64,000 bases of DNA from Elusimicrobiota bacterium (lineage in GTDB: Bacteria > Elusimicrobiota > Elusimicrobia > UBA1565). Below, one piece after another: positions 45,449-63,397 of the stretch. The notes beneath the pieces are model-generated. The model made no database searches and was not told the origin of the DNA. It saw only the letters and a program-made list of their open reading frames with translations. Position 1 is the stretch's first letter; each line of letters opens with the position of its first letter. The stretch covers positions 45,043 through 109,042 of the forward strand of contig JACPXC010000062.1 of the NCBI GenBank assembly GCA_016196755.1, given 5' to 3'. Both the position numbers and the translations under genes were made by a program.

Positions 45449-48863
<3,415 letters not shown>

Positions 48864-48871
<8 letters not shown>

Positions 48872-49208
48872 CGCGCAGTTCCAGCTCGTCTCCGGGGGAG
48901 AGCTTCCCCCCCGCCGTCCCGGCAGCCATCTCAAGCACGCTGTGGGCCGAGTAGACCCAAGGCGAGAGTCGCCAGGGCTTGAGGCCCTCCGCTACCCGCC
49001 GGACCCTCAGGCCCCGGTCGATGAAGACCACGTCGATCGGGAACCTCATGAAGAACATGTGGACCATCGCGCACGGCACGATCCACACGCCTTCGCCGGG
49101 TCCCAGGGAGTCCCGTCCGAGGAGCCCCTTGGCTCGCGTCGTCGCCGTGTCGCACCGGTCGATTCGGTCCGCTACGACGGCTCCGCGAGTCTTGTTGAAT
49201 ATTATCAA
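48864..49208 (-). CDS. DUF192 (COG1430) domain protein
   Basis: VWIVPCAMVHMFFMRFPIDVVFID is diagnostic of DUF192. TTG start at 49208 lies inside the 40-nt direct repeat. Confidence 0.65.
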
Positions 49209-49214
49209 AATGGG
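49175..49214. repeat. Direct repeat copy 1 (about 40 nt; spans the DUF192 start codon and first codons)
   Basis: CGACGGCTCCGCGAGTCTTGTTGAATATTATCAAAATGGG matches 49555-49594 with 4 mismatches. Confidence 0.7.
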
Positions 49215-49217
49215 CGC

Positions 49218-49379
49218 TCAATCCCGCAGCGTCTTGACCCAGCGAACCGAGCCTTTGGACAACTCGGGATGGTCGACGCTCTTCCAAGACCCGGAGGCGG
49301 CCTTAAGCGCACGCAACTGGCGGAGCGCTTTGCGCACTCTAGCTGCTTGCGGCTTCGTTCGCGGGTTGTTCTTGTTCAT
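49218..49379 (-). CDS. Small basic hypothetical protein (53 aa)
   Basis: Sub-threshold ORF MNKNNPRTKPQAARVRKALRQLRALKAASGSWKSVDHPELSKGSVRWVKTLRD. Lys/Arg-rich, preceded by an 18-bp perfect palindrome. Not in the ORF track (under 60 aa). Confidence 0.35.
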   Translation of the reverse strand: MNKNNPRTKPQAARVRKALRQLRALKAASGSWKSVDHPELSKGSVRWVKTLRD

Positions 49380-49390
49380 CCTAGCGTCCA

Positions 49391-49408
49391 ACTGTCCACG
49401 TGGACAGT
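49391..49408. promoter_or_regulatory. 18-bp perfect palindrome ACTGTCCACGTGGACAGT (operator-like) with adjacent TATACT
   Basis: Perfect dyad with a CACGTG core. It lies 12 nt upstream of the small basic ORF's ATG on its coding strand. A TATACT -10-like hexamer is adjacent. Confidence 0.45.
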
Positions 49409-49424
49409 ATACCCCGCGCCCGCG

Positions 49425-49554
49425 CTACCGGATGACGGCAACCCGGGCGGTCTGGGAGCCGGAGTCGGTCTTGACCAGGAGCAGGTAGACGCCCGAGGCC
49501 ACGAAGTTGCCGTGGTCGTTCTTGCCGTCCCAGGAGGTCAGGGCGCGCAGGTCC
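49425..49554 (-). pseudogene. Remnant of a C-terminal sorting/FlgD-Ig-like domain (gene fragment)
   Basis: Translates to ...RRDLRALTSWDGKNDHGNFVASGVYLLLVKTDSGSQTARVAVIR*. This is homologous to the C-terminus of the S8 protease at 50240 (FWDGKNTNGTFVASGVYIIMVKAG...). It has no upstream body and abuts repeat copy 2. Confidence 0.55.
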
Positions 49555-49594
49555 CGACGACCCCGCGCGTCTTGTTGAATACTATCAAAATGGG
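49555..49594. repeat. Direct repeat copy 2 (about 40 nt)
   Basis: CGACGACCCCGCGCGTCTTGTTGAATACTATCAAAATGGG. It would encode a DUF192-like N-terminus (L/M)IVFNKTRG fused out of frame to the sorting-domain remnant. Confidence 0.7.
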
Positions 49595-49607
49595 GCCTTG
49601 GGGAAGG

Positions 49608-49946
49608 CTACTCGCGGACGCGCACCCCGGCACGATCGACGACGAAGAGCTTGCCGGAGAAGCCCTTGGCCGGGAGTGCAAGCACTCCGGCTAAAGCCCG
49701 GACCATCTCCTCGAGCACCGGCGGGTGAACCCGCAGGAGAATGACTCCCTTCGTGACGCTCGGCGGGTACTGGAGCACGTTGGCGAAGTCCTTATCTTGA
49801 GTAAGCAGGACGCGCTCCTGAGCGACGGCAAGAGAAACGATGTCCCTGTCGTTTGCGCCGCGCGGAGAATCCTCGACATCGTGACCTTTGCCGCGAAGCA
49901 CGGCGACGAGGGCTGCCGGGATGTTCTCGTCGGCCAGCAGGCGCAT
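49608..49946 (-). CDS. DUF5615 domain protein (PIN-like, putative toxin partner of DUF433)
   Basis: MRLLADENIP...LTQDKDF is typical of DUF5615/Mut7-C-like proteins. 1-nt gap to the upstream DUF433 gene. Confidence 0.55.
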   Translation of the reverse strand: MRLLADENIPAALVAVLRGKGHDVEDSPRGANDRDIVSLAVAQERVLLTQDKDFANVLQYPPSVTKGVILLRVHPPVLEEMVRALAGVLALPAKGFSGKLFVVDRAGVRVRE

Positions 49947-49947
49947 C

Positions 49948-50190
49948 CTAACTGACGGACGGTATGAATTCCCGGTCCCTGATCAGTTGGGCGGCGTAAT
50001 GGAGAGCGGCCTGGATGGATTGCTGGGTAAGCGTGGGGTAGTAATCCTTTAGAATATCTTCCTGAGAAATCCCCGCCTCGAGGAGCTCTAAAACGAGGTA
50101 GACCATGACCCGCGTCCCCTTGAAGCAAGGCTGGCCATGGCAGACGTCGGCGGTTACGGAGATATGGTTTCTCACATCCATCGTGCCCAT
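49948..50190 (-). CDS. DUF433 domain protein (putative antitoxin-like partner)
   Basis: GQPCFKGTRVMVYLVLELLEAGISQEDILKDYPTL is the DUF433 signature. Confidence 0.6.
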   Translation of the reverse strand: MGTMDVRNHISVTADVCHGQPCFKGTRVMVYLVLELLEAGISQEDILKDYYPTLTQQSIQAALHYAAQLIRDREFIPSVS

Positions 50191-50239
50191 ACTTTAGCAG
50201 GGGCTTTGCCGAGCGTCAAGGCTGGCTGGGACGGCAGGA

Positions 50240-51889
50240 TCAATGGATAAAGGCCAGCTTGAACCGCCTAATGTCGCTGCCCGCCTTCACCATGATTATG
50301 TATACGCCGGACGCCACGAATGTCCCGTTGGTGTTCTTCCCGTCCCAGAACGCCGTGGTCGTGAACGGCTGCAGGGTCCGGACCGGCTGCCCTTCCATCG
50401 TATGGACGGTCACTGCAGGACTCTTCCCATGGAACGAGACGGGAAGCTTGATGGTGACGCCGGAGGACTCGTTAGCCCTGAAGGGATTAGGGAACGCGAC
50501 GACCGGATCGGCGACCACGAAGCCGGCCAAGGCCGACCCGTTGCTGCAGGCGCCGACAGGAACGCCCTGAGCCAGCTTGATCGCCTTGCAGGCGTTGACG
50601 CGCCCCGCGCCCTGGCTCGTGGCGGCAAGACCGATGCTGTCGGCGCCGTTTCGGATATGGGTCCGGACCTGCAGCGGCGTCAGGGCGGCGTTCTCGGACA
50701 AGAGGAGCGCCGACAGTCCGGCTACGATCGGAGCGGAAAAAGAGGTGCCGGTGGCGAGATCGCTGGCTGACGTGACGCCCCCGCCGATGGTGGTCGTAAG
50801 CAGCTTGACGCCGGGCGCGACCACTCCGCGCGCCGTCATCTCGGCGCCGCGGGAGGAGAAGGACGCCAGCTGGTCCAGGCTGTCGGTGGCGCCGACGGGG
50901 AACGCGTCGGTGCAATTCCCAGGGGCGTCGACGGCCCCGCCGTCATTTCCCGCCGAGGCGATGAAGACGACGCCGGCGGCGACGGCGTTCGTGATGGCCG
51001 TATCCAAGAGGCCGGAACAGGCGATGCTCTCGCCGAGGCTGGTGTTGACGACCACCCGCCCGAAGACCCCCGGAGCGACGGCCAACACCGTGCGCGCGTA
51101 GTCGATTGCGCTGATTATCGCCGTGTCGTCGGTCGCGCATATCTGGCCCGTCCCGTCGCCGCAGGAGGACGTGCAGTCCTGGGTTCGAAAGACGCGCAGC
51201 GAGATCAATTGGGCGCCCCACGACACGCCGGACACTCCGAAATTATTATTAGTGCCCGCCGTCGCCACCCCGGCGACCCGAGTCCCATGGTTGCATGCCG
51301 CGACCGCACCCCCACTAGGCTCAGCCCCGCAGGCGGTGTTATCTCCTCCAATGAGCTTGCTGTCACCCGGGTTGCAGAACTGGCTGACCCCGACCATTTT
51401 CCCCGAGAGTTCAGGGTGGCTGCCTTCGATCCCTGAGTCGAGAACGGCGATCGTCACTTTGGCCGTCGCCCCATCCTCATCGTCCCATGCCTGAGGCGAA
51501 TTTATCTTTTCGAACTGATACTGAGACCAGAACAGAGGGTCATTAGGCACCTTGCTCACGTGATAGACGTGGTTCGGCTGAACCGCCAAGACGCCCGGGA
51601 CGGCGGCGAGCCTGGTCAGGCCGTCCGAAACCGCCATCCCCGCGGGCAGAAGGACGTGGGTGCCCTCTGACAATTCCCGGATGATTCCCGCGCCGATGGC
51701 GGCCAAAGCGGTCTCGCGGCTGGAACGATTCACGGCCGGGTCGAAACGGACCAGAACCTCTCCGACGACGACTTCGATGCCGTCTCCCGCCAACGGACGC
51801 CCCCCTAAGGACCGCAGTCTCTCCACCTGGATGGCGTTCACGGTTGCTGGACATAGCAGCAGCATGGCGAACAGATGAAATTTATTCAT
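50240..51889 (-). CDS. Secreted subtilisin-like serine protease (S8) with I9 propeptide and C-terminal FlgD-Ig-like/sorting domain
   Basis: D-H-S triad motifs (AVLDSGI, HGTRVAGV, GTSFSAPIVAG). Signal peptide MNKFHLFAMLLLCPATVNA. C-terminal WDGKNTNGTFVASGVYII module. Confidence 0.85.
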   Translation of the reverse strand: MNKFHLFAMLLLCPATVNAIQVERLRSLGGRPLAGDGIEVVVGEVLVRFDPAVNRSSRETALAAIGAGIIRELSEGTHVLLPAGMAVSDGLTRLAAVPGVLAVQPNHVYHVSKVPNDPLFWSQYQFEKINSPQAWDDEDGATAKVTIAVLDSGIEGSHPELSGKMVGVSQFCNPGDSKLIGGDNTACGAEPSGGAVAACNHGTRVAGVATAGTNNNFGVSGVSWGAQLISLRVFRTQDCTSSCGDGTGQICATDDTAIISAIDYARTVLAVAPGVFGRVVVNTSLGESIACSGLLDTAITNAVAAGVVFIASAGNDGGAVDAPGNCTDAFPVGATDSLDQLASFSSRGAEMTARGVVAPGVKLLTTTIGGGVTSASDLATGTSFSAPIVAGLSALLLSENAALTPLQVRTHIRNGADSIGLAATSQGAGRVNACKAIKLAQGVPVGACSNGSALAGFVVADPVVAFPNPFRANESSGVTIKLPVSFHGKSPAVTVHTMEGQPVRTLQPFTTTAFWDGKNTNGTFVASGVYIIMVKAGSDIRRFKLAFIH

Positions 51890-51925
51890 GTTTCTCCACC
51901 CGGGATTGTAGAACATTACCGCCGT

Positions 51926-52225
51926 TTATCTTGACCCCGTTCTTGATCCCGCGCACGCGACGGCCCGCTCGTAGCCGACGAGGCGGCGTAGGAGAGCGTT
52001 GTACCTGGAATGGGCGGCGTCGGAACCCTCGCGGCTCAATAAGGCGTAGAGCCGTTTTTCAGGATCCAGGAACGGCTCCGCCAAGGTGAGGCCGAGGCTG
52101 CGGAGCTTGGGAGCTCCAATTGAGACCAGGAGCGCCTCCGCCGTCTCGCGTCTCCCGGCCAGGTCGGCCGCGCCTTGGGCTACGAGGTCAGCCCCAGGCA
52201 GGCCGGGGTTGATGTCTGCAGCCAT
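51926..52225 (-). CDS. Hypothetical protein (99 aa) downstream partner of the COG1373 ATPase
   Basis: Ala/Leu-rich and helical; no motif recognised. 1-nt gap after the ATPase stop. Confidence 0.3.
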   Translation of the reverse strand: MAADINPGLPGADLVAQGAADLAGRRETAEALLVSIGAPKLRSLGLTLAEPFLDPEKRLYALLSREGSDAAHSRYNALLRRLVGYERAVACAGSRTGSR

Positions 52226-52226
52226 T

Positions 52227-53738
52227 TCACCTCAAGAGCATAAACGACGATAATGGAATCGTGACGATCCTCGGATCAATGACTTCAGACACTTCGGTTT
52301 GACAGATTAGCAGGCCGAAAGGCGCGTTGTTCACTTTCTTCTCGATAAATGCACGCAGCCCTTCAGTGTCCGCCAGCGGGTCGATTCTCCTCTGATACTT
52401 CACTTCCAAAGGGATTCTTCGCGTCCCGACGGTAAGAATAAAATCGACCTCGGGGTCATCCCCGCGAGCCGGAAGATGCGCCAGATCCAATGCCGGGATC
52501 GTGGCGAGCAACGCGCCGACGGCGCTCTCGGCGAGATGTCCGGCGAGAGTCGTCAAATGGGGATTCTTCTCAAGCTCCCGAGGATCCAAAGGAATGATTT
52601 CCTGCAGCCAACTCGCTCGCAAACCATGATCGGCAAGGCAGATTTTGGAATTGCCGCGGCGTTGCTTGAGTCTAATCTCAAGAGGCTCAACCAGCCTAAT
52701 CAAAAGCGTGTCAGACAAAAAACGCAGATATTGTCTTACGCGCTGCGACCCGATGTTGGCGTCGAGAGAGCGCTTTGTCTCTCTCGCAAAGAGCGCGTAG
52801 CCGGGAGTTTGTCCCACGTAACGGCAAGCCATCCGAAAAAGTTCTTCCAAAAGCGATTGGTCGCGCTTCCGTCCACGCTCACCGACCCGAAGATCATGTT
52901 CGATGACTCTTTTAATGACGGTCTCGTTCAAATGATCGGCGACTTGCGCCCAAGGCAACTCTCGACGTTCGTGTCCGAAGGGATATCCACCTCTCTCGGA
53001 AAATGCGCGAAAGGCGTTGTCTCGAAATTCACTGTTCTTGCGACCAGATTCGAGCAGAGAATGCCAAAATCCGTGCTCAACCAAGGGTTCCAATCCATTA
53101 TCTCTCAACCCCGGCTCAAGAGCACCCAATCCTTGGAACAATCCGATTTCCGTAAGCGACAGCACCCCGGCTTCGATCGTCGAGATTCGTCCAGCCAAAC
53201 TGTCACGACCCAAACCAATCCGCAAAGCAGAACTGCCCGTAACCAATATTTGAACGGCGGAATTATCAACCAGGTGCTTGAGCTGAGGCGCCCAGTCCTT
53301 TAGATTTTGGACCTCGTCCAAAAAAATGGTCGCCGGCCGTCCAACCTTTGCCGCTTCATTCAGCGACATGCCGAGAATCGATGTTTCGAACCAATCGACG
53401 ATACGCAGGATTGGCTCGGACAATTTTTCAATTTCCACCAGCTCATCAGTCTGAACTCGAAGAATTCGCCGAGGTTCCACTCCGGAAGAGAGCAAATCCT
53501 CAAGGACCTGCATCTGCGCGGTCGTCTTACCGATCTGTCGTGGACCGCGAACGACGACGATCGGCGCCACTTTTGCATTGAGTCGCTTTTGGATGGAACG
53601 AACCAGATGCCGCCTGGTCTCCGGCTGGGGTTTCGAAGGAAGGCCTTCCCACCAAGGGTTCATCCGCCGCAAATCCCGGACCAAAGGATCACTAAGCTTC
53701 ATAGCGGAAAAAAGGAAACTGGGGGAGGCTTCAGGCAA
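52227..53738 (-). CDS. AAA+ ATPase of the COG1373 family (AAA_14 + DUF4143)
   Basis: Walker A GPRQIGKTT, Walker B FLDEVQ, N-terminal MNPWWE motif, C-terminal DUF4143-like region. Confidence 0.7.
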   Translation of the reverse strand: MPEASPSFLFSAMKLSDPLVRDLRRMNPWWEGLPSKPQPETRRHLVRSIQKRLNAKVAPIVVVRGPRQIGKTTAQMQVLEDLLSSGVEPRRILRVQTDELVEIEKLSEPILRIVDWFETSILGMSLNEAAKVGRPATIFLDEVQNLKDWAPQLKHLVDNSAVQILVTGSSALRIGLGRDSLAGRISTIEAGVLSLTEIGLFQGLGALEPGLRDNGLEPLVEHGFWHSLLESGRKNSEFRDNAFRAFSERGGYPFGHERRELPWAQVADHLNETVIKRVIEHDLRVGERGRKRDQSLLEELFRMACRYVGQTPGYALFARETKRSLDANIGSQRVRQYLRFLSDTLLIRLVEPLEIRLKQRRGNSKICLADHGLRASWLQEIIPLDPRELEKNPHLTTLAGHLAESAVGALLATIPALDLAHLPARGDDPEVDFILTVGTRRIPLEVKYQRRIDPLADTEGLRAFIEKKVNNAPFGLLICQTEVSEVIDPRIVTIPLSSFMLLR

Positions 53739-54417
53739 GGCCGTTCTCCTTCTTGATGATGTCGACGAGCTCGATGATGTCGCCCAGCTCGTAGTCGGCG
53801 CCCGACTCCTTGGTGTCGAAGGTGTCGCCGTACTTGGCCCAGGCCGTCTTCAAGCCGATCTTCTTGGCCCCCACGATGTCGCGGTCGGGCCAGTCGCCGA
53901 CCATGAGGGTCTCCTCGGCCTTGGTGCCGAGGACCTCGAGGGCCTTCCGGAAGGGGATCTGGTCGGGCTTCTTGACCCCGTAGTCCTCGGAGGCGATGAC
54001 GTGGTCGAAGTAGTTGTGGATCCCTAAGCCCACGATGCGCAGCCAGACCTCGAGCTTCGGGGCATCGGAGAGGACGGTCGAGCGGATACCCATCTTGAGC
54101 AGCTCGAAGAGCGTCACCGTGACGTGGGGGTAGAGGGCCAGGGACCCCGCCTTCGAGCGCCGGTAGCCGACGATCCCGGCGGCCAGGATCTTGATGTCGA
54201 TGCGCCCGAACTCCTTCTGAAGGATCTTGTCGAAGATGCGCTGGTCCTCGACCCCCTCTTTCCAATAGAGCTCGAAGATCTTCTCGACGAAAGCGGTCTT
54301 GTCGACCTTGAGGCCGGCGTCGATCATCATCTCCACCGCCACGTCCACCGCCATGCGCTTGGTGCGCATGAAGTCGGTGAGCGTGTTGTCGATGTCGAAG
54401 ATGACCCCGCGGATCAA
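53731..54417 (-). CDS. HAD-superfamily hydrolase (subfamily IA)
   Basis: Motif I FDIDNTLTD, motif III K, motif IV GDWPDRD. TTG start overlapping the efp stop (TTGA). Confidence 0.75.
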   Translation of the reverse strand: MIRGVIFDIDNTLTDFMRTKRMAVDVAVEMMIDAGLKVDKTAFVEKIFELYWKEGVEDQRIFDKILQKEFGRIDIKILAAGIVGYRRSKAGSLALYPHVTVTLFELLKMGIRSTVLSDAPKLEVWLRIVGLGIHNYFDHVIASEDYGVKKPDQIPFRKALEVLGTKAEETLMVGDWPDRDIVGAKKIGLKTAWAKYGDTFDTKESGADYELGDIIELVDIIKKENGLA

Positions 54418-61997: not shown

Positions 61998-63397
61998 CAG
62001 GAGTCGGAGAGCGTGCCGCCCTCGAGGCGGCGCAGGAGGTCGGCCCCCACCTTCCAGACGTCCCCCGCCCCCAAGGTCAGGACCACGTCCCCGGCGGCCA
62101 GCTCGCAGGCCAGGTCCACGGCCCGCGTGAACGGCCGCGCGGCCACGCCGGCCCGCCGCGCGGCGCCGATGATGAGCCCGGAGGACACCCCGCGGATCGG
62201 CTTCTCGCCCGCGGCGTAGACGGGGAGGACGTAGGCCGCGTCCGCGCCCTTGAGCGCCGGGCCGAACTGGCGCCAGAGCTGGCGGGTCCGCGTGTAGCGG
62301 TGGGGCTGGAACACGACGACCAGGCGGCGGCCCTTGGCGAAGGAACCGCGCATCGCGGCCAAGGTGGCGCGCACCTCAGTGGGATGGTGGCCGTAGTCGT
62401 CGATGAAGAGGACGCCGCGCGCCGAGCCGAGGCGCTCCAGACGCCGGCCCACGCCGCGGAAATCCGAGAGCCCCTTGGCCACCTTCTTAGGCGCGCAGCC
62501 GATGAAGTCCGCGGCCGCGGCCGCGGCCAGGGCGTTTAAGGCATTGTGCCGGCCCGGCACGCGCAGGTCGAGCGTGCCCCAGCGCCGGCCGTGCTTCTTC
62601 ACCTCGAGCCGCTGCGCCGCCTTGCCCGAAAGGGCGGGCAGGACCTTGCCGCGCCAGTCGGCGGCGCGGTCCAGGGCGTAGGTGAGGACAGGCCGACCGG
62701 CGGCGCGCGCTGCCGCCACGGCGTTGGCGTCCTCGCCGCAGACCACGGCCAGGCCATAGAACGGCAGGCGCCCCAGGTGCTCCCGGAACGCCGCCTTGAG
62801 GTTTTCCATCGTGCCGTAGTGGTCGAGATGGTCGTCGTCGATGTTGGTGACCACGGCCACCAGCGGGAAGAGACTCAGGAAGGAGCCGTCGGACTCGTCG
62901 GCTTCGGCCACCAGGTAGTCGCCCAGCCCGACACGGGCGTTAGCACCCATCAGGTTCGCCACCTGCCCGCCGACCACGACCGTCGGATCGACGCCGGCGG
63001 CCTGCAGGGCCATGCCCACCATGGCCGTCGTCGTGGTCTTGCCGTGCGAGCCGGCCACCGTGATGGTCTTCTTAAGGCGCGCCAGCTCGGCCAGCATCGC
63101 CACGCGCGGCACCACCGGGACGCCATGCGCGCGGGCCCAGCGCGCCTCGGGGTTCTCCGCGGCCACCGCCGAGCTCACCACCACGACCTCGGCGCCCGCG
63201 GCGTGCGCGGCGCGGTGGCCGAGATGGACCTTGGCGCCGGCCCGGCGCAGGCGCCGGGTCAGCTCGGTGTCCTTTAAGTCCGAGCCCGAGACCGAGAAGC
63301 CGAGGTTGAGGAGCACCTGGGCGATCCCGCTCATGCCGACGCCGCCGATGCCGACGAAATGGACCCGGCGCACGAACTGCCGCATGGGCTCTTTCAT
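61997..63397 (-). CDS. murC: UDP-N-acetylmuramate--L-alanine ligase
   Basis: HFVGIGGVGMSGIA, GSHGKTTTT P-loop, Mur ligase middle and C-terminal domains. Start at ATG 63397 with RBS AGGGAG. Confidence 0.9.
   Translation of the reverse strand: MKEPMRQFVRRVHFVGIGGVGMSGIAQVLLNLGFSVSGSDLKDTELTRRLRRAGAKVHLGHRAAHAAGAEVVVVSSAVAAENPEARWARAHGVPVVPRVAMLAELARLKKTITVAGSHGKTTTTAMVGMALQAAGVDPTVVVGGQVANLMGANARVGLGDYLVAEADESDGSFLSLFPLVAVVTNIDDDHLDHYGTMENLKAAFREHLGRLPFYGLAVVCGEDANAVAAARAAGRPVLTYALDRAADWRGKVLPALSGKAAQRLEVKKHGRRWGTLDLRVPGRHNALNALAAAAAADFIGCAPKKVAKGLSDFRGVGRRLERLGSARGVLFIDDYGHHPTEVRATLAAMRGSFAKGRRLVVVFQPHRYTRTRQLWRQFGPALKGADAAYVLPVYAAGEKPIRGVSSGLIIGAARRAGVAARPFTRAVDLACELAAGDVVLTLGAGDVWKVGADLLRRLEGGTLSDS

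Follow-up and report, generated by a model that had tools for sequence, protein, structure and literature searches.

How did the start of one gene come to stand twice, a few hundred nucleotides apart, with pieces of other genes between the two copies? The question is raised by a locus in a high-GC member of the Elusimicrobia, where the beginning of a DUF192 gene recurs upstream of that gene within the 64-kb window (the whole stretch of DNA analysed here). The first-pass annotation had read the arrangement as the scar of a site-specific insertion or deletion with an att-like duplication, and not as ordinary intergenic DNA. We find that the repeat and the gene pieces are most likely debris left when a hypervariable protease gene was exchanged imprecisely, and not a mobile-element footprint, and that the locus is both real and fairly ordinary. 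The features of the scar all lie on the minus strand and, together with the genes around them, are as follows.

48864-49208, minus strand: intact DUF192 gene, 114 aa, TTG start (PF02643, E 9.6e-18)
49175-49214, minus strand: 40-mer copy 1, at the head of the functional DUF192 gene: the TTG (49206-49208), 6 nt upstream of it, and the first 10 codons with a further 2 nt
49218-49379, minus strand: 53-aa basic ORF with an ATG start; alternatively extending to 49391 with a TTG start (57 aa)
49391-49408, no strand: perfect 18-bp palindrome ACTGTCCACGTGGACAGT, between the stop of the S8 remnant and the small ORF, 12 nt upstream of the ATG
49425-49560, minus strand: S8 protease remnant of L007 type, the last 43 codons (49428-49556) plus the stop codon (49425-49427), FlgD-Ig/sorting-type C-terminal domain
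49555-49560, no strand: novel joint where the DUF192 5' fragment meets the S8 remnant, placed by the overlap of both sets of blastn alignments and by multiple alignment
49555-49594, minus strand: 40-mer copy 2, a DUF192 5' fragment without the rest of the gene, TTG at 49586-49588
49608-49946, minus strand: DUF5615 (PIN-like / Mut7-C) predicted toxin gene (PF18480, E 4.7e-18; GC3 0.77)
49948-50190, minus strand: DUF433 predicted antitoxin gene (PF04255, E 4.4e-22), 1 nt from the toxin gene
50240-51916, minus strand: intact S8 protease gene, divergent allele 'S8x' (Peptidase_S8, E 8.2e-39)

The two copies of the 40-mer are identical at 36 of 40 positions and begin 380 nt apart, in full agreement with the duplication, with its four mismatches, that had been reported at the DUF192 start. 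The 26-nt core of the repeat is found at just two sites in the 64-kb window, where shuffled sequences lead one to expect none, and a search of the window for further copies of the 40-mer returned only these two. The repeat does contain the TTG start; it takes in 10-11 codons of the gene, not the first seven as originally described. Of the four differences between the copies, two are synonymous and the other two are an I/V and an A/V replacement. Copy 2 is 87-91% identical to the DUF192 starts of relatives (blastn) and translates as MIVFNKTRGVVGTCAP, ending at a stop codon at 49538-49540, with the S8 remnant in another frame. Both copies have CCCATT before the TTG, where relatives carry a GATT-like sequence; the common CCCATT would fit two closely related parents, and would also fit a duplication in situ.

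The arrangement in relatives supplies the frame in which these pieces can be read. Gene order in the clade is EF-P, HAD hydrolase, S8 with a C-terminal sorting-type domain, DUF192 and methylmalonyl-CoA mutase (MCM), with HAD-S8-DUF192-MCM present in relatives; in the window, the DUF192 stop overlaps the MCM start by 8 nt. Elusimicrobia DUF192 orthologues adjoining S8 genes show 47-89% amino acid identity, and an S8 gene with a matching tail ends at most 33 nt before DUF192 in 39 of the 43 non-self related Elusimicrobia loci. In L010, the closest relative found (DUF192 89% identical in amino acids), S8 lies about 4-7 nt from DUF192 and HAD-S8-DUF192 is otherwise uninterrupted. The comparison with orthologous loci, suggested in the first-pass annotation as a way of defining the empty site, thus identifies that site as S8 directly upstream of DUF192, without duplication. 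Intact S8/sorting-domain genes in this unduplicated position in related genomes contradict the att-like reading on the very terms in which it was put forward, and the original description survives only in part: the region is a scar, comprising a rearrangement and a gene remnant, while the reading as a site-specific insertion or an att-like duplication fails.

The sorting-domain piece had been taken for a gene remnant without a gene body, and rightly so. It preserves 43 codons, translated as RDLRALTSWDGKNDHGNFVASGVYLLLVKTDSGSQTARVAVIR and followed by the stop codon, with no start codon or gene body 5' of it and no Peptidase_S8 catalytic domain in the remnant; its FlgD_ig match, at 18.9 bits, falls under the Pfam cut-off. 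In a multiple alignment the remnant is colinear with the S8 tails of relatives from CGGGACC through the stop codon. It is 84.1% identical in nucleotides over 126 nt (84% in amino acids) to the 3' end of the L007 S8 gene, where the DUF192-MCM backbone is 84.06% identical in nucleotides to that of L007, and it matches L010 at 80.6% of nucleotides (77% of amino acids by tblastn), L006 at 70% of amino acids and the 3' end of the window's own S8 gene (50240-51916) at 77% of nucleotides over 64 nt. By these alignments the remnant is the tail of the S8 type that occupies the same position in L007. Its open frame, its GC3 of 0.98 (core genes, 0.95-0.96) and its backbone-level identity to L007 argue for a young scar rather than an old duplication. 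The DNA between the repeats, moreover, had been regarded as an insert, and its first 130 nt turn out to be an S8 tail, of the type and in the orientation found before DUF192 in relatives.

The intact S8 gene of the window is a different allele. S8x (GC3 0.80) shares 48-61% amino acid identity with the S8 proteins at the same locus in relatives, the nearest being that of L003, and its tail is just 37-56% identical in amino acids to the tails of L007, L010 and L006 and 42% identical to the remnant. Two of the relatives differ in a comparable manner: between L003 and L006 the DUF192 protein does not differ and the flanks are 93-100% identical in nucleotides, while their S8 bodies are about 65% identical in nucleotides and 57% in amino acids, with sharp boundaries. 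Judging from such comparisons, the hypervariable S8 gene behaves as an allelic cassette, swapped between strains via conserved flanks. Flexible genomic islands of the replacement type, and cassette switching between alleles at loci for surface or secreted proteins, are known, capsule or O-antigen loci swapped via conserved flanks being an example, and the present locus resembles them in placing a hypervariable exported-protein gene between conserved core genes and in having divergent alleles in near-identical backgrounds (L003 versus L006). It differs in having one S8 gene as its cassette, where those loci hold several glycan genes, and in that the swap appears to have been imprecise on one side and to have left remnants.

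In the window S8x is followed by DUF433/DUF5615 and then by the second DUF192 start, with a sigma-70-like site 5' of DUF433 (50219-50191) and 13 nt between the end of the DUF5615 gene and copy 2. DUF433 and DUF5615, adjacent and 1 nt apart, score 78.1 and 65.5 bits, above the Pfam cut-offs, and form a predicted type II toxin-antitoxin pair; our literature search returned no papers that mention the two families together. Other modules are found at the same spot in relatives, with a MazE-like antitoxin and a PIN gene directly before DUF192 in L014 and a Phd/YefM and PIN pair there in L026. On this comparative evidence the short S8-DUF192 spacer is a hot spot that repeatedly receives toxin-antitoxin modules.

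At the novel joint the DUF192 head stands before the S8 tail, as against the S8 tail followed by the DUF192 head in 39 of 43 loci. The window is colinear with DUF192 starts on the 5' side of CGGGACC and with S8 tails on its 3' side, and DUF192 codon 11-13 is joined to S8 codon -43 at about 49555-49560. Relatives read GTCGTSG in DUF192 and CTSGTSCGGGAC in S8 at the joint, about 4-7 bases being common to the two, a count that comes from relatives and not from the true parents; it suggests a short microhomology (TCGT / CGG-type).

We consider the region to be probably the scar of an illegitimate recombination that joined two haplotypes of a recombination hot spot. One parental haplotype would have carried the divergent S8 allele, the DUF433/DUF5615 pair and DUF192; the other would have carried the L007-type S8 allele, a decayed ribbon-helix-helix (RHH) vapB without its vapC, and DUF192, with one of the two presumably being that of the recipient. 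One crossover was presumably homologous and took place in flanking DNA, for which the conserved HAD and MCM sides offer possible anchors, and the other would have been illegitimate, linking haplotype-1 DUF192 at about codon 11-13 to haplotype-2 S8 at codon -43 through a few bases of microhomology. This single step would yield the orphan DUF192 start, the 43-codon S8 tail, the vapB fragment with the palindrome, and the intact DUF192 gene. No function need be sought for the 340 bp between the repeats, whose small ORF and palindrome, like the 16-codon DUF192 stub, are most likely non-functional leftovers. Exact look-ups of the DUF192 and DUF5615 proteins matched solely contigs identical to the window and returned neither parental haplotype.

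Joints of this type have been described elsewhere. Homology-facilitated illegitimate recombination (HFIR) with joints of 3-10 bp is documented in transformable bacteria in the account of PMC6382021 (citing de Vries and Wackernagel 2002), where joints arising from natural transformation are given for Acinetobacter baylyi, Streptococcus pneumoniae and Pseudomonas stutzeri. The present locus is similar to what is set out in that account (PMC6382021) in that DNA that is non-adjacent in relatives meets at a new joint over a GC-rich microhomology of a few bases, homologous flanking DNA being presumed at the far end, and in that foreign or allelic DNA is set beside truncated resident genes. It differs from the HFIR described there (PMC6382021) in that our case is deduced from comparative genomics alone.

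The remaining part of the interval holds the small ORF, which is Lys/Arg-rich as first noted (14 K+R versus 3 D+E). A word-indexed search of 5.8 billion proteins matched only the protein itself; its status as an orphan was overturned by exhaustive phmmer, which recovered 61 relatives. These lead to an RHH ('DHPEL') antitoxin family of at least 3340 members with a typical length of 88 aa, whose members in L146-L158, in three unrelated contexts, are followed within 1-2 nt by a PIN gene. The family HMM matches the small ORF at positions 40-76 only (48-50 bits), and the central/C-terminal motif AAGSWKDxDHPELxxGxxxWVxxLR is kept, with the invariant G, W, D-H-P and L all in place. This motif is what the small ORF has in common with the VapB proteins of VapBC (PIN) modules, the 88-aa RHH proteins encoded directly before PIN genes; it differs from them in having no RHH domain, no last 12 residues and no vapC partner, the DUF192 start lying 9 nt past the ORF stop and no vapC (PIN) gene following. 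Its N-terminal 16 aa show no homology to the family. MAFFT weakly pairs GVYCPR...GQLDARMNKNNPRT with HIVIP...EIDTLVGKRGRS, and the pairing is not significant. A hidden RHH upstream of the ATG, in frame or frameshifted, was considered and rejected, as the family HMM, run on 49150-49650 in all six frames, did not match the RHH part (positions 1-39). By homology, then, the small ORF is a fragment of a gene for an 88-aa ribbon-helix-helix antitoxin of VapB type. The 210-nt vapB-fragment part is missing from relatives, and blastn and tblastx found no other copy of the segment (49215-49424) in the window or in the fetched loci. A single-sequence AlphaFold model of the 53-aa ORF gives two helices at a pLDDT of 64, too weak for a fold search.

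The palindrome next to it is a perfect 18-bp dyad, just as reported, and was rejected as a statistically unusual signal on the scale of the window, in which two perfect 18-nt palindromes are observed against 0.8 expected under a first-order model and for which 57% of simulated windows hold at least one. The second of the two, at 62509, is a low-complexity run of CGCGGCCGCG type, and a search for further copies of the first within the window found none. No sigma-70-like promoter was found at the palindrome, nor any terminator or promoter match there on the relevant strand; RNA folding of 49370-49440 gives no stability beyond that of shuffled sequence (z -0.07), and 48800-50300 had no Rfam match at E <= 1. 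Since the small ORF lacks the RHH DNA-binding part, binding of the palindrome by the 53-aa protein is unlikely.

There is a slim chance that the small ORF is more than a leftover, and that it has been retained as a stand-alone antitoxin tail, neutralising PIN/VapC toxins in trans. If true, it would be an anti-addiction device at a locus where PIN-type toxin-antitoxin modules arrive again and again; a toxin-binding role of the VapB part without its DNA-binding domain is presumed in such a reading. Compatible with it are the intact ATG-to-stop ORF and a GC3 of 0.74 against 0.52-0.57 at the other codon positions. Several of the nearest database relatives of the small ORF are likewise short forms of 49-76 aa without the RHH, and both of the two whose context was examined have no adjacent PIN gene. 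One short form (L160) adjoins another DUF433/DUF5615 pair. A conserved module of short DHPEL protein, DUF433 and DUF5615 was rejected on comparison with this locus, the DUF433 protein there being 41% identical to the window's and similarity of the DUF5615 protein being undetectable.

The tail-head-tail-head order of the locus is also what would be expected of a tandem duplication in situ, in which a segment starting 43 codons before the end of S8 and ending near codon 12 of DUF192 was doubled; the two spacer copies would later have gained DUF433/DUF5615 and vapBC independently, vapBC would have decayed, and a divergent allele would have replaced the full-length S8. The CCCATT common to both copies and unlike relatives agrees with this, the spacer is a demonstrated insertion hot spot for toxin-antitoxin modules, and S8 alleles are demonstrably exchanged. 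The scheme, however, requires four or more separate events where the joining of haplotypes needs one or two, and the two S8 tails are only 77% identical in nucleotides and 42% in amino acids. The undecayed remnant argues for a young scar, and the 40-mer changes, two synonymous and two conservative, suit the divergence of functional alleles better than the decay of a dead copy, and we regard a duplication in situ as unlikely. It is very improbable that the locus is an assembly chimera, in which haplotypes of two co-existing strains were mis-joined: the source is a metagenome and a locus hypervariable between strains is one where assemblers can mis-join, but two Logan assemblies from two sequencing runs are 100% identical through every joint, and the partners share few bases at the joint, well below any assembler k-mer.

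The site-specific insertion first proposed would mean that a small element bearing the 53-aa ORF together with the palindrome entered DUF192 at its 5' end and duplicated a 40-bp att-like target. Near-identical direct repeats around 340 bp, which take in the 5' end of a gene as att-site duplications do, and the absence from relatives of the vapB-fragment part with its atypical GC3 are in its favor. Against this, Pfam detects no integrase, transposase or recombinase in the nine proteins scanned from MCM to the ATPase, the repeats are imperfect, with mismatches at 4 of 40 positions, and neither 40-mer nor palindrome recurs in the window. The enclosed DNA begins with 130 nt of the S8 tail type found before DUF192 in relatives, and the ORF, a piece of a gene, has no DNA-binding domain. 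Unlike the case in att-site duplications, the clearly atypical DNA (S8x, the toxin-antitoxin pair and the ATPase; GC3 0.57-0.80) is not enclosed by the repeats but situated upstream of copy 2. The toxin-antitoxin insertions of relatives at the same spot occurred without such a duplication, a second DUF192-head copy being absent at the insertion-bearing loci L011, L014, L023 and L026. Taken together, these points make an inserted element extremely unlikely.

Read as an illegitimate joining of two haplotypes, the locus reveals no new mechanism and no new mobile element, and would be useful as a naturally occurring joint of illegitimate recombination from an uncultivated phylum. It bears on the evolution of the S8-DUF192 locus in uncultured Elusimicrobia, in which alleles of the secreted or surface S8 protease are deeply divergent and appear to be exchanged as a cassette, the gap of a few nucleotides between S8 and DUF192 repeatedly captures PIN-type toxin-antitoxin modules, and imprecise exchange leaves gene fragments that can be dated. 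It also carries a warning for annotation, as the 53-aa 'hypothetical protein' and the 16-codon DUF192 stub are fragments.

Base composition and backbone identity also vary along the region. Overall GC dips across 49200-53800, with GC3 at 0.72-0.77 in the toxin-antitoxin pair and 0.57 in the ATPase gene. The left and right backbones are 77% and 84% identical to relatives, respectively, a gap that may reflect gene-specific constraint.

All features relevant to the repeat locus lie on the minus strand, in the following order:

53731-54417, minus strand, HAD hydrolase
52227-53738, minus strand, AAA_14/DUF4143 ATPase
51926-52225, minus strand, 99-aa ORF with no Pfam match
50240-51916, minus strand, intact S8 protease
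49948-50190, minus strand, DUF433 antitoxin
49608-49946, minus strand, DUF5615 PIN-like toxin
49555-49594, minus strand, copy 2 of the 40-mer
49425-49560, minus strand, S8-tail remnant
49391-49408, palindrome
49218-49379, minus strand, 53-aa ORF
48864-49208, minus strand, DUF192
from about 48871 down, minus strand, methylmalonyl-CoA mutase (MCM)

The duplication described in the first-pass annotation is real: copies 1 (49175-49214) and 2 (49555-49594) are spaced by 380 nt and share 36 of their 40 nucleotides, and their 26-nt core has no further occurrence in the 64-kb window, with none expected by chance. Copy 1 takes in 6 nt of leader and, from the TTG start at 49206-49208 onward, the opening 10-11 codons of the functional DUF192 gene (PF02643, E 9.6e-18); copy 2 is an orphan DUF192 head, whose translation, MIVFNKTRGVVGTCAP followed by a stop, does not share the remnant's reading frame. 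Of the four positions at which the copies differ, two are synonymous, one exchanges I and V and one A and V, as expected if the copies diverged as functional alleles before being joined. The remnant, an open frame with its stop at 49425-49427 that translates as RDLRALTSWDGKNDHGNFVASGVYLLLVKTDSGSQTARVAVIR, indeed lacks a gene body, and it resembles the tail of the S8 gene at 50240-51916 (77% nucleotide identity over 64 nt); its FlgD_ig match of 18.9 bits is under the Pfam cut-off.

The small basic ORF reported between the repeats is likewise present (53 aa, K+R 14 versus D+E 3). A word-indexed search found no relatives of it; 61 came up when 1.8 billion representatives were searched exhaustively with phmmer, and a profile search outlined a family with at least 3340 members, typically 88 aa long. 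Members carry the JGI label of Arc/MetJ/CopG-type ribbon-helix-helix (RHH) regulators and, in three unrelated genomic contexts, are followed after 1-2 nt by a PIN-domain gene, which identifies the family as RHH-type VapB antitoxins. On the window the family HMM matches positions 40-76 of 88 only, and none of the six frames matches the N-terminal RHH; the ORF also lacks the final 12 residues, and no vapC gene lies beside it. The ORF is thus an internal vapB fragment, its ATG and stop retained by happenstance, and, because two of the three defining features were tested and found absent, it does not qualify as a functional VapB; binding of the palindrome through an RHH domain would not be expected of such a sequence. 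Short DHPEL-family forms with neither RHH nor adjacent PIN gene occur elsewhere, at L160:1013-1916 and L159:2001-2198 (76 aa and 65 aa); the one in L160 precedes, by 135 nt, a further DUF433/DUF5615 pair that is no more than distantly related.

The perfect 18-bp palindrome, ACTGTCCACGTGGACAGT, was also correctly reported at 49391-49408; it lies between the 40-mer copies, with the stop codon of the remnant on one side and, on the other, that 5' part of the vapB fragment which has no homology to the family. Its assignment to a promoter region finds no support, as neither a promoter nor a terminator pattern was matched there; no Rfam family was found at the site, the RNA fold is no more stable than those of shuffles, and 0.8 perfect 18-mer palindromes are expected per window of the same composition. 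The sole other one, at 62509-62526, is a low-complexity run, CGCGGCCGCGGCCGCG. The remnant stop and the 53-aa ORF share a reading frame with no stop between them (49380-49427, minus strand; R, stop, then RGRGVYCPRGQLDARMNKNN...), in which the palindrome codes YCPRGQL, a stretch that may be either chance or a decayed vapB N-terminus.

DUF192 homologues place the organism among the high-GC Elusimicrobia, and all contigs of relatives (DUF192 68-89% amino acid identity) have the order EF-P, HAD, (variable small genes), S8 protease, DUF192, MCM. The closest relative found, L010 (SCTT01000252.1; DUF192 89%), has HAD, S8 and DUF192 with nothing else there and a distance of about 4-7 nt from S8 to the DUF192 TTG, and the gap is at most 33 nt in 39 of the 43 non-self loci with an S8 tail upstream of DUF192. 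Relatives therefore carry an intact sorting-domain gene at this place without a duplication, the arrangement that the first-pass annotation had held to be at odds with its att-like reading.

In two Logan contigs, L003 and L006, the DUF192 proteins are identical and the flanks 93-100% identical in nucleotides, and the S8 genes (L003:753-2411, L006:547-2211) share about 65% of nucleotides and 57% of amino acids, the divergence having sharp edges inside the first 100 nt of S8 and at its stop. In this Elusimicrobia clade, S8 therefore behaves as a hypervariable cassette open to exchange. Its alleles have at least two tail types, VKTD..QT..AVIR in the relatives' loci L006, L007, L009 and L010 and in the window remnant, and a second in L003 and the window's intact S8, mutual best matches at 61%. 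The few large-gap loci hold insertions in which a PIN-type toxin-antitoxin pair comes last, right before DUF192 (MazE-like antitoxin and PIN at L014:5332-5960; Phd/YefM and PIN at L026:2396-3105); the insertion in L011 includes an HNH endonuclease among other ORFs, and no second DUF192 head occurs in these three loci. The L014 and L026 pairs are independent insertions, and toxin-antitoxin modules have landed repeatedly in the spacer between S8 and DUF192, so that a haplotype of S8, toxin-antitoxin pair and DUF192, one parent required by the explanation offered below, is realistic. The hypervariable cassette and the recurrent toxin-antitoxin capture beside DUF192 are a modestly interesting by-product.

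Against L007 the remnant is 84.1% identical over 126 nt (blastn) and the DUF192-MCM backbone 84.06% over 6.3 kb; the window's intact S8 reaches only 64% in its body, and its tail gives no blastn alignment. The 43-residue remnant protein is 84% identical to L007, 77% to L010, 70% to L006 and 42% to the tail of the window's intact S8; the remnant matches the L007 S8 type. GC is 66-75% in the flanks but 50-65% over about 49200-53800, and GC3 is 0.98 in the remnant, 0.95-0.96 in core genes (MCM, HAD, T2SS ATPase), 0.80 in the intact S8, 0.72-0.77 in the toxin-antitoxin genes and 0.57 in the AAA_14/DUF4143 ATPase. The intact S8 and the toxin-antitoxin pair next to it stand out as atypical in composition; the remnant, given its identity to L007 and its GC3, is backbone-like.

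Multiple alignment shows colinearity with relatives' S8 tails for the window stretch that runs from CGGGACCTG... through the TAG stop; CCCATTTTGATAGTATTCAACAAGACGCGCGGGGTCGT, immediately 5' of it, is colinear with DUF192 starts, which relatives have 3' of the S8 stop. At 49555-49560 the blastn alignments to the DUF192 part and to the S8 part overlap. Relatives have GTCGTSGTGGCGG in DUF192 and CTSGTSCGGGAC in S8, which places the joint within about 4-7 nt of putative, imperfect microhomology, as read from relatives rather than from the true parents. We consider it probable that the locus is the scar of an illegitimate recombination joining two haplotypes of a recombination hot spot, one with the divergent S8, DUF433/DUF5615 and DUF192, the other with an L007-type S8, the decayed vapB and DUF192. 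One crossover, presumably homologous, would have fallen inside a conserved flank, and the other, illegitimate, would have fused a DUF192 head to an S8 tail at the microhomology, a pattern that corresponds to the one described in PMC6382021 for homology-facilitated illegitimate recombination. Such a joining would account in one step for the head-tail-(fragment)-head order, for repeats that are 10% divergent, for a remnant of backbone-like composition and for the atypical composition upstream of copy 2.

A tandem duplication in situ, followed by cassette insertions and S8 replacement, would also leave two heads, but it would take a larger number of events and is at odds with a remnant that has not decayed and with tails that share 42% of their amino acids, and we regard it as unlikely. 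An assembly chimera is very improbable, since two Logan assemblies are 100% identical across all joints and the partners have no long k-mer in common at the joint. The site-specific, att-type insertion favored by the first-pass annotation would account for flanking repeats, yet a Pfam scan of the nine proteins from MCM to the ATPase turned up no recombinase, the repeats enclose S8-tail DNA like that of relatives and the atypical DNA lies outside them, and we give this reading hardly any credence. The feature instead works like a scar of homology-facilitated or other illegitimate recombination in a replacement-type variable locus; it is real but ordinary in kind.

Several neighboring features merit mention. 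The AAA_14/DUF4143 ATPase gene (52227-53738, minus strand; GC3 0.57 versus 0.95 in the core), between HAD and the 99-aa ORF, is missing in all fetched relatives and looks like a separate, recent foreign acquisition. The 99-aa ORF (51926-52225, minus strand) has an 88-aa counterpart of 74% amino acid identity in the corresponding place in L007 (L007:3582-4363), where that counterpart overlaps a DUF6036 nucleotidyltransferase gene; the two may form a module of which the window kept one partner only. A sigma-70-like site (50191-50219, minus strand; TTGACG-17 nt-TAAAGT with a TG extension) ends right at the annotated DUF433 start, and the DUF433/DUF5615 pair may have a promoter of its own, with an antitoxin start that is leaderless or shorter. 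The DUF192 stop and MCM start overlap by 8 nt (48864-48871, minus strand; ATGGCTGA), and after the mutase L007 encodes a T2SS-type ATPase, a GAF-HD protein, a B12-binding subunit and MeaB, a stretch along whose entire length the window aligns; DUF192 may be functionally part of the mutase operon.
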